Positions 37,070-37,084 of a stretch of DNA of 64,000 nt are shown here, one piece after another (the first letter of the stretch is position 1; each line of letters starts with the position of its first letter). The translations under genes and the position numbers were made by a program. Below the pieces are notes generated by a model. That model had not been told where the DNA came from. It saw only the letters and a program-made list of their open reading frames with translations, and ran no database searches. This DNA comes from Enterobacter phage vB_Ecl_SABI: the sequence record PQ864023.1. One strand, given 5' to 3'.

Positions 37070-37084
37070 ACGCACGGAGTGCGT
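37070..37084. promoter_or_regulatory. hairpin ACGCAC-GGA-GTGCGT (3-nt loop) abutting the stop of the 37084..37332 gene
   Basis: Perfect 6-bp stem identical to the 2780 hairpin. Confidence 0.35.

Follow-up and report, generated by a model that had tools for sequence, protein, structure and literature searches.

The 64,000-nucleotide (nt) stretch of Enterobacter phage vB_Ecl_SABI analyzed here (sequence record PQ864023.1; hereafter the window) carries on its plus strand a family of perfect DNA hairpins, whose stems of 6–7 bp close a loop reading GGA or GGA followed by one further base, written GGA(N). Six members of this family, sites A to F, recur in related phages and are candidate promoters for leftward, minus-strand transcription. 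They are listed below, each with the G proposed from the sequence as its transcription start site (TSS).

Site A: 37070..37084, plus strand, ACGCAC-GGA-GTGCGT, perfect template-strand hairpin; candidate TSS G 37064, minus strand.
Site B: 35561..35577, plus strand, AATGCCC-GGA-GGGCATT, overlapping the stop codon of open reading frame (ORF) 35576-35821 (minus strand); candidate TSS G 35556, minus strand.
Site C: 43952..43968, plus strand, AATGCAC-GGA-GTGCATT, directly after the minus-strand terminator 43976-43995; candidate TSS G 43946 (gtaATG), minus strand.
Site D: 2780..2795, plus strand, ACGCAC-GGAA-GTGCGT, 1 nt past the stop codon of ORF 2797-3009 (minus strand); candidate TSS G 2774 or 2773, minus strand.
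Site E: 7694..7709, plus strand, GGGCAG-GGAA-CTGCCC, in a divergent intergenic region; candidate TSS G 7686, minus strand.
Site F: 6697..6714, plus strand, AATGCCC-GGAT-GGGCATT, after the stop codon of a 54-amino-acid ORF and before the gp41-like gene; candidate TSS G 6692, minus strand.

The loop has 3 nt at A, B, and C and 4 nt at D, E, and F. It is framed as C-GGA-G at the first three sites and as C-GGA(N)-G at D and F, while the closing pair is G:C at E. An initial annotation of this DNA had singled out four of these hairpins (A, C, D, and E) as possible promoters of the phage N4 type for a virion RNA polymerase (vRNAP). All four are indeed perfect inverted repeats, although the hairpin of site C begins and ends one base to the left of the interval first assigned to it (43953-43969), and two conserved members, B and F, had been absent from that list.

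All six sites lie between genes. This placement is based on the published coding sequence (CDS) tables of Escherichia phage EK8, Kosakonia phage Kc283, and Pectobacterium phage CB1, in which the sites fall between annotated genes and often touch the upstream stop codon, with the exception of a 38-amino-acid hypothetical CDS in EK8 which overlaps site E. A greedy longest-ORF map was dropped because of spurious antisense ORFs over B, C, and D. Sites B and F appear intragenic since the mechanical ORF list extends the following gene to an upstream ATG that falls within the hairpin; the starts supported by a Shine-Dalgarno sequence are downstream of both hairpins, the likely true start of the gene after site B being ATG 35519, preceded by AGAGGAA, and that of the gp41-like gene being ATG 6683. 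Site A overlaps by 1 nt the stop codon of ORF 37084-37332 (minus strand), about 0.7 kb downstream of the genes for the phage RNA polymerase II (RNAPII). Site D is located between the primase region and a gp44-like gene and is followed by a terminator-like hairpin (2746-2768, minus strand). At site E, where no gene precedes on the same strand, the hairpin lies 33 nt ahead of the minus-strand replication operon, whose first gene is thyX-like (7661). The earlier remark that three of the four hairpins abut the stop codon of the upstream gene is correct for A and D, but not for E, nor for C, where the terminator 43976-43995 stands between the hairpin and the upstream gene.

A genome-wide search of the kind suggested by the initial annotation showed a strong enrichment. 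Counting perfect hairpins that have a GGA or GGAA loop on a stem of 6 bp or longer, we obtain 8 for the plus strand, where 300 dinucleotide shuffles predict 0.23 ± 0.49 and none reaches 8 (0/300), and 1 for the minus strand, where 0.27 is expected. When the window, EK8, Kc283, and CB1 are taken together, 31 such hairpins lie on the template strand for early/middle genes and 2 on the other strand. A chance origin of the hairpins is ruled out by these shuffles and by the conservation described below. As the early and middle genes are on the minus strand, the GGA loops are on the template strand, as the initial annotation supposed, and as promoter elements of the N4 family the hairpins would drive leftward transcription. 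Nearest-neighbour DNA folding yields −5.5 to −7.3 kcal/mol for the hairpins, both strands scoring alike. In N4 promoter DNA, a sheared G:A pair forms within a C:G-closed GGA triloop, whose stability is unusually high (PMC4496689); this argument holds only for the template-strand version.

Three further perfect GGA/GGAA hairpins on the same strand are within coding sequence (24194-24208, 24551-24566, and 32192-32206), the genes around them being the start of rIIB, the end of rIIA, and a gp24-like ATPase. None of them has the C:G closing pair, and EK8, Kc283, and CB1 contain no counterpart of any of the three; the hairpin at 32192 recurs in two Integrated Microbial Genomes/Virus (IMG/VR) contigs, L009 and L011, which are the two nearest relatives. 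These coding hairpins could be internal promoters or a coincidence.

On sequence similarity and gene order, the window belongs to a Cbunavirus-like schitovirus. A megablast search with the 35–45 kb region matched only N4-like phages of the genus Cbunavirus, namely EK8, Kc283, and the Pectobacterium phages CB1, Nepra, and phiA41, with an identity of ~78–80% that is limited to conserved genes and is best for the two RNAPII subunit genes. Gene order agrees with the EK8, Kc283, and CB1 records. On the minus strand, early and middle genes extend leftward from ~46.4 kb to 16.3 kb and resume at 7.7 kb as far as the start of the window; late genes occupy the plus strand from 47.3 kb onward. By homology to CB1, whose ends have been determined experimentally, the physical left end is placed at ~46419 and read on the minus strand. 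The end of the window falls in the last codons of the gene which precedes vRNAP in EK8 (58% identity); by synteny, the giant vRNAP gene, which is encoded by all relatives, would therefore start just past the window end. The phage is thereby N4-like, as the initial annotation implied. Two components of the transcription machinery are encoded between the left end and site A:

37805..40072, minus strand: T7-like RNAPII heterodimer, two subunits at 39092-40072 and 37805-39079 (phrog_2166, E=1e-112; phrog_2051, E=1e-149).
40666..40950, minus strand: homolog of Drc, the single-stranded DNA (ssDNA)-binding RNAPII cofactor of phage LUZ7 (phrog_6271, LUZ7 gp14 family, E=1.3e-15, full length).

The RNAPII subunits are annotated as RNAP1 and RNAP2 in relatives. 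The Drc homolog is 46% identical to a Kc283 protein annotated as "ssDNA binding RNA Polymerase cofactor" and has a weak N-terminal match to LUZ7 Drc which includes a YLN..TRDG motif. No homolog of N4 gp1 or gp2 was found by tblastn in the window.

Conservation was investigated by scanning EK8, Kc283, CB1, and ten IMG/VR contigs retrieved through the RNAPII large subunit and a gp42-like exonuclease. Sites A to F recur at orthologous positions and on the same strand in EK8, Kc283, CB1, and contigs L009–L013 and L019–L022; the exception is site B in CB1, which was not found there, the neighbouring sequence being different. At site A, a perfect hairpin is present at the orthologous position in 12 of the 12 genomes examined, with stems as diverse as ACGCAC, CTGGCC, AAGGCAC, TCGCAC, and GCGTTC. 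Orthologs of site B have the stem AGTGCCC in EK8, ATGCCC in Kc283 and L012, and (TA)GTGGCC in L009 and L010. Those of site C have TATGGCC, ATGGCC, or GTGTGC in EK8, Kc283, CB1, and L010–L013, always with the same terminator just before. Site D orthologs read AACGAGC-GGAA in EK8, Kc283, CB1, and L022, and at site E an identical hairpin occupies the same place in EK8, Kc283, CB1, L019, L021, and L022. At site F the loop is GGAA in EK8, CB1, and L022, GGAG in Kc283, and GGAT in the window; the fourth loop base is thus free, and the conserved core is C-GGA(N)-G. Altogether, at least 14 different stem sequences occur over the orthologs of A to F, while the template loop is GGA or GGA plus one base throughout.

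The stems covary. Among 26 distinct sequences, gathered by a scan for perfect hairpins, the six inner pairs are 100% Watson-Crick, a figure which is partly circular given this mode of selection, with double-sided changes at every pair and no wobble. The score for covariation reaches 0.80, compared with 0.23 for shuffled sets and at most 0.07 when pairing partners are slid. Perfect hairpins were present at almost all orthologous positions inspected, site B in CB1 being the exception. A MAFFT alignment of the set with 4-nt loops introduced gaps inside the stems and was not used for pair counts; anchored extracts were read instead. One observation concerns contig L009 (IMGVR_UViG_2228664000_000024), whose RNAPII large subunit is 100% identical to that of the window: its site B stem is GTGGCC, against AATGCCC in the window, and the leader after site C also differs, which indicates mosaic exchange among very close relatives.

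Hairpin promoters of such architecture are already known in LUZ7 and N4, and for Cbunavirus only another class, with ATA as its coding-strand loop (TAT on the template), is annotated. The literature searched does not describe the GGA(N) class for Cbunavirus, and it is unannotated in the CB1 record. In LUZ7, a Pseudomonas phage, TSSs have been mapped by 5′-triphosphate enrichment using ONT-cappable-seq (Putzeys et al., 2022; PMC9163698; bioRxiv 10.1101/2022.03.18.484859, Table S2). Five LUZ7 promoters, PE7, PE8, PM2, PM3, and PM4, are each downstream of a hairpin with a TCC loop on the coding strand, which is GGA on the template (bioRxiv 10.1101/2022.03.18.484859, Table S2). In four of these five the stem is 6–7 bp long and the TSS is a G 13 nt past the loop, the values for PM4 being 4–5 bp and 14 nt (10.1101/2022.03.18.484859). 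PM2 (TSS 35273) was further validated by primer extension. PE7 and PE8 are weak sites seen at 5 min and called early, while PM2, PM3, and PM4 are middle promoters; the strong early promoters have GTA or GAA loops, and GGA is the loop of the middle promoters (10.1101/2022.03.18.484859).

The window sites match this LUZ7 class in several respects. The hairpin definition of the class (stem of at least 6 bp, 3–4-nt loop, template GGA) applies to all six of them. A G is found 12–14 nt past the loop at six of six sites, often within "..AATG", and falls into the column of the LUZ7 TSS G, which is at least 90% G; at the sequence level, this agrees with the LUZ7-class start, a G located ~13–15 nt from the loop centre. 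In a scan of the LUZ7 genome, the PE7 hairpin lies after RNAPII, that of PM2 in the divergent region preceding the replication operon, and that of PM3 at the primase/gp44-like junction. Sites A, E, and D are in the same genomic positions, the syntenic pairs being A with PE7 (TSS 8259), E with PM2 (TSS 35273), and D with PM3 (TSS 39375). As in LUZ7, RNAPII and Drc are both encoded, the template GGA loop is on a 6–7-bp stem (closed by C:G in four of the five LUZ7 sites), an identical stem occurs twice in one genome (PE7 and PE8 in LUZ7, A and D here), a weak terminator directly follows the first TSS, and the left-end early promoters use a separate loop class. As a control, a hairpin scan of the first 40 kb of N4 recovered its three known promoters and nothing comparable in the rest of these 40 kb.

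The two systems also differ. LUZ7 belongs to another genus with another host range, and the Drc proteins share only ~37% local identity. The window stems are less GC-rich, and half of the window sites have a 4-nt GGA(N) loop, for which LUZ7 has a single 4-nt case, GGAC in PM1. Unlike in LUZ7, one of the window sites (C) is inside the early region, and the left-end template loop is TAT here versus GTA or GAA in LUZ7. Finally, the LUZ7 promoters are known from mapped transcripts, while those of the window are candidates predicted from sequence.

From their position, their loop type, and their homology to the mapped LUZ7 promoters, we infer that the GGA(N) hairpins are conserved template-strand DNA-hairpin promoters of the N4/LUZ7 kind, most likely middle promoters served by RNAPII and Drc, a reading to which we assign a probability of about 0.6. 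Transcription at sites A to F would then start at the listed G residues, with RNAPII as the probable polymerase. In the proposed mechanism, negative supercoiling or local unwinding would lead the inverted repeat to extrude, and the template (plus) strand would form a C:G-closed stem of 6–7 bp with a GGA or GGA(N) loop. This hairpin would be recognized by a phage T7-like RNA polymerase, and RNA synthesis would proceed leftward from the G ~12–14 nt beyond the loop. The enzyme in question would most likely be RNAPII, a heterodimer which the ssDNA-binding cofactor Drc would recruit for middle transcription, while the virion RNA polymerase would use a separate left-end class of hairpins with a TAT template loop.

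This left-end class was retrieved in the same region by hairpin scanning (coding C-ATA-G, template TAT):

46321-46331, minus strand: ATA-loop hairpin, stem GGCC.
45541-45553, minus strand: ATA-loop hairpin, stem TACGC.
44888-44898, minus strand: ATA-loop hairpin, stem GTGC.
41388-41404, minus strand: ATA-loop hairpin, stem AACGTGC.
41023-41039, minus strand: ATA-loop hairpin, stem AACGCGC.

These five hairpins of the window, which span 41023..46331, are all upstream of RNAPII. Most have a G-C step beside the loop (template −9C/−8G), and the members have a G 12 nt past the loop. The class is conserved with compensatory changes in L009–L013. Its first member lies ~90 nt from the estimated left end, a position comparable to those of N4 P1 (90-102) and LUZ7 PE1 (TSS 99), and two members precede the Drc homolog, as do the tandem early promoters PE4 and PE5 in LUZ7. 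In the CB1 record, this class is annotated as "N4 early promoter" hairpins. The hairpin promoters reported for the Pectobacterium phages CB1, CB3, and CB4, whose genome is the same at genus level, are predictions drawn from the N4 analogy (Buttimer et al., 2018; PMC6027278), and those annotated are of the ATA-loop left-end class and not of the GGA(N) class. By counts alone, the ATA/TAT class is not significantly enriched over shuffles; the case for it relies on position, closing pair, and conservation. Collectively, these features indicate that the ATA-loop hairpins are probably the early promoters of vRNAP, and better candidates for this role than the GGA(N) class. LUZ7 and Cbunavirus share the GGA loop but not the left-end loop (GTA versus TAT), which fits with two separate readers. 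In the interval 34000-48000, matches to sigma-70-like promoters are depleted (10 versus 29.8 ± 4.8 in shuffles), which fits with early and middle transcription independent of the host polymerase, and terminator-like hairpins are enriched (16 versus 8.9).

Several points weigh against the assignment of the GGA(N) sites to RNAPII and Drc, in addition to the partial circularity of the pairing figure. Promoter activity and the choice of polymerase rest on analogy with LUZ7, which is of a different subfamily. At A and D, terminator-like hairpins stand between the predicted TSS and the next gene, an arrangement that would be wasteful unless they are read through. The coding hairpins at 24194, 24551, and 32192 exceed the chance expectation of 0.23 and are left unexplained. 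The remaining points speak at the same time for vRNAP as the reader, as the initial annotation had proposed. According to this explanation, the GGA(N) hairpins would be promoters for the injected vRNAP, like P1–P3 of N4, and would serve early transcription, DNA entry, or genome-wide priming. The sequence given in that annotation for the N4 P2 promoter, GAAGC-GGA-GCTTC on the template strand, is correct, as seen from a scan of the N4 sequence. The N4 vRNAP reads C-GGA-G and C-GAA-G hairpins, and N4 P2 and P3 have the same loop and closing pair (C-GGA-G) as sites A, B, and C; the stems of 6–7 bp and the 3-nt loops of three sites are also those of such promoters, and site C lies within the early region, upstream of Drc and RNAPII and directly after an early terminator. 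In addition, LUZ7 PE7 and PE8, the counterparts of A and B with the same loop, were seen in the 5-min sample and called early.

The comparison with N4 nevertheless argues for another enzyme. Like N4 P1–P3 (5–7-bp stem, 3-nt loop with a central purine), the window sites are template-strand DNA hairpins, with a stem and loop of these sizes at A, B, and C, and in both cases the direction of transcription leads off from the template hairpin at its 5′ side. The N4-type loop (G-purine-A with C:G closing; −9C, −10G, −11 purine, −12A) is present, with a G:C closing pair at E. However, the −8G which is essential in N4 and contacts R904 is absent from all six sites, being replaced by A (A, C, D, and E) or C (B and F), and three sites have 4-nt loops, while N4 has 3-nt loops only, an A-tract spacer, and a start 10 nt past the loop. 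Location differs as well. N4 has only three such promoters, all in its leftmost 4.6 kb, and in the N4 model vRNAP promoters are confined to the first-injected end. Here, five of the six sites (A, B, D, E, and F) are downstream of the RNAPII genes, at 9.3 (A), 10.8 (B), 38.7 (E), 39.7 (F), and 43.6 kb (D) from the estimated left end, and only C (~2.45 kb) comes before them. The left-end early region is filled by the ATA-loop class instead (template C-TAT-G, mostly −9C/−8G), from ~90 nt onward and ahead of Drc, and the strong early promoters of LUZ7 have GTA or GAA, the GGA loop being reserved there for middle promoters. In N4 itself, middle promoters are AT-rich, do not form hairpins, and use gp1 and gp2. 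In a phmmer search of a Cbunavirus vRNAP against PDB, only the C-terminal domain was aligned confidently, the polymerase domain being too diverged for a comparison of the residues which contact the promoter in N4 (K114, R119, W129, D901, and R904). We consider it unlikely that vRNAP is the reader of some or all of the GGA(N) sites. Of the initial proposal, the assignment to the N4 family of template-strand hairpin promoters would stand, while the polymerase is probably not vRNAP.

Explanations other than promoters were also considered. In the first, the hairpins act at the RNA level in minus-strand transcripts, where the loop reads UCC or UUCC, in processing, stability, or pausing and termination, and the LUZ7 5′ ends would be cleavage products. 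Four of the six sites are right behind a stop codon, as expected of a 3′-end stabilizer or processing site. Moreover, a LUZ7 transcript 3′ end, T41, adjoins the PM3 TSS, and the PM3 hairpin followed by UCUUUC has been called an intrinsic terminator with 54–68% efficiency. Site E, on the other hand, has no upstream gene to serve in this manner and precedes the first gene of its operon, and the LUZ7 calls come from 5′-triphosphate enrichment, which excludes processed ends. The lack of any G-U wobble in ~150 inner base-pair cells is unusual for a selected RNA helix, although the set was chosen for perfect stems. A U-tract is missing at A to D and F, at E there are just three T, on the opposite (plus) strand, and the invariant loop is of the GNA type only on the DNA template strand. 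A purely RNA-level role is consequently very unlikely in our view, while a dual role as promoter and RNA 3′ end is possible. In LUZ7 (L007), the interval 39354-39375 brings T41 (39374) next to the PM3 start (39375), and the PM3 hairpin may serve both as an RNA terminator and as a DNA promoter. Plain rho-independent terminators were rejected as an identity for the window hairpins: there is no coding-strand T-run after any of the six, and separate terminators adjoin A, C, and D.

In another alternative, the repeats might be bound by proteins, as the initial annotation also suggested, or signal as cruciforms in some other DNA process, for instance replication (origin or priming), recombination, nuclease action, or packaging. 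Sites D, E, and F do cluster near replication genes, and a cruciform-forming repeat is in principle bindable by other proteins. Such a function would not account for so strict a bias in strand, for a conserved G that keeps its spacing on the transcribed side, for the location shortly before gene starts (E, F, B, and C), or for the mapped TSSs of the LUZ7 counterparts, and we regard it as highly improbable.

The promoter reading gives particular interest to the leader downstream of site A:

36991..37058, minus strand: leader after site A, with a hairpin GACGC-N3-4-GCGTC (~37043-37058), then a terminator-like hairpin (36991-37017) and a T-run.

In the leader hairpin, the stem is invariant and the loop variable; after it come a run rich in U and then a strong terminator, the stem of which shows covariation between relatives. 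Initiation at site A would thereby produce a short leader or RNA of ~75–80 nt (36985-37064). An Rfam scan around site A returned only a sub-threshold chance match. At both A and D, the site has a stop codon on one side and a terminator-like hairpin on the other, with the predicted start upstream of the terminator, and at site A the order of promoter hairpin, TSS, and terminator is found in all Cbunavirus relatives, in the distant contig L015, and in LUZ7. In LUZ7, the fraction of transcripts stopped by the terminator T12, which begins 14 nt past the PE7 start, is 6% at 5 min, 14% at 10 min, and 20% at 20 min (LUZ7 tables). Since T12 halts only 6–20%, a layout of stop codon, promoter, and terminator is no bar to expression. 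The initial annotation had judged promoters abutting stop codons to be odd, an objection which loses its ground with the equal layout of LUZ7 PE7. The non-coding stretch after the site A terminator contains two other motifs on the minus strand, both conserved in Kc283, CB1, and L012: TTTTATACCTATATG at 36913-36927, present as a single copy in the window, and CCTATAGGCTAAA at ~36845-36860, just before the gene start at 36839.

A few features outside these two hairpin classes were recorded. The interval 45560-46419 is homologous to the 647-bp direct terminal repeat of CB1 and its flank, from which the assembly appears to cross the genome ends; ~400 bp of non-coding sequence within it contain degenerate TATAGG/CTATAC hexamer repeats (45659-45714) and three copies of TTGTGTAG (45940-45963). 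At 46440-47300 (minus strand), AT-rich repeated motifs (TTTTTATAA... and two copies of ATAAAAATT at 47269-47286) are upstream of each of three small right-end genes, and neither hairpin class was found upstream of these three genes in this interval. Four clustered tRNA genes (Gln-TTG, Tyr-GTA, Asp-GTC, and Asn-GTT) lie at 51755-52162 (minus strand) within the late region, where relatives are annotated with tRNAs Asn, Tyr, and Gln.

The GGA loop has been kept from the Pseudomonas phage LUZ7 to the enterobacterial Cbunavirus, while the stems have been fully turned over. As a tentative generalization, to which we give slightly less than an even chance, schitoviruses encoding Drc might share a loop-coded system of two classes, with C-GGA(N)-G for RNAPII and Drc and a lineage-specific loop for vRNAP (TAT here, GTA or GAA in LUZ7, GGA or GAA in N4). 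If this is true, the middle promoters of N4-like phages, long described as unidentifiable, would become predictable from sequence, and the promoter, 5′ stem-loop, and weak terminator conserved after RNAPII at site A might constitute an attenuator or a small RNA. Independently of this generalization, the favoured reading takes the LUZ7 middle-promoter architecture to the enterobacterial schitoviruses, and a simple rule, a template C-GGA(N)-G hairpin with a G 12–14 nt on, locates probable middle promoters in Cbunavirus and its relatives. By marking the beginnings of transcription units, this rule would be of use for annotation and phage engineering. The TAT-loop and GGA-loop hairpins would also provide a natural pair of substrates for investigating how two unrelated phage RNA polymerases discriminate between DNA hairpins.

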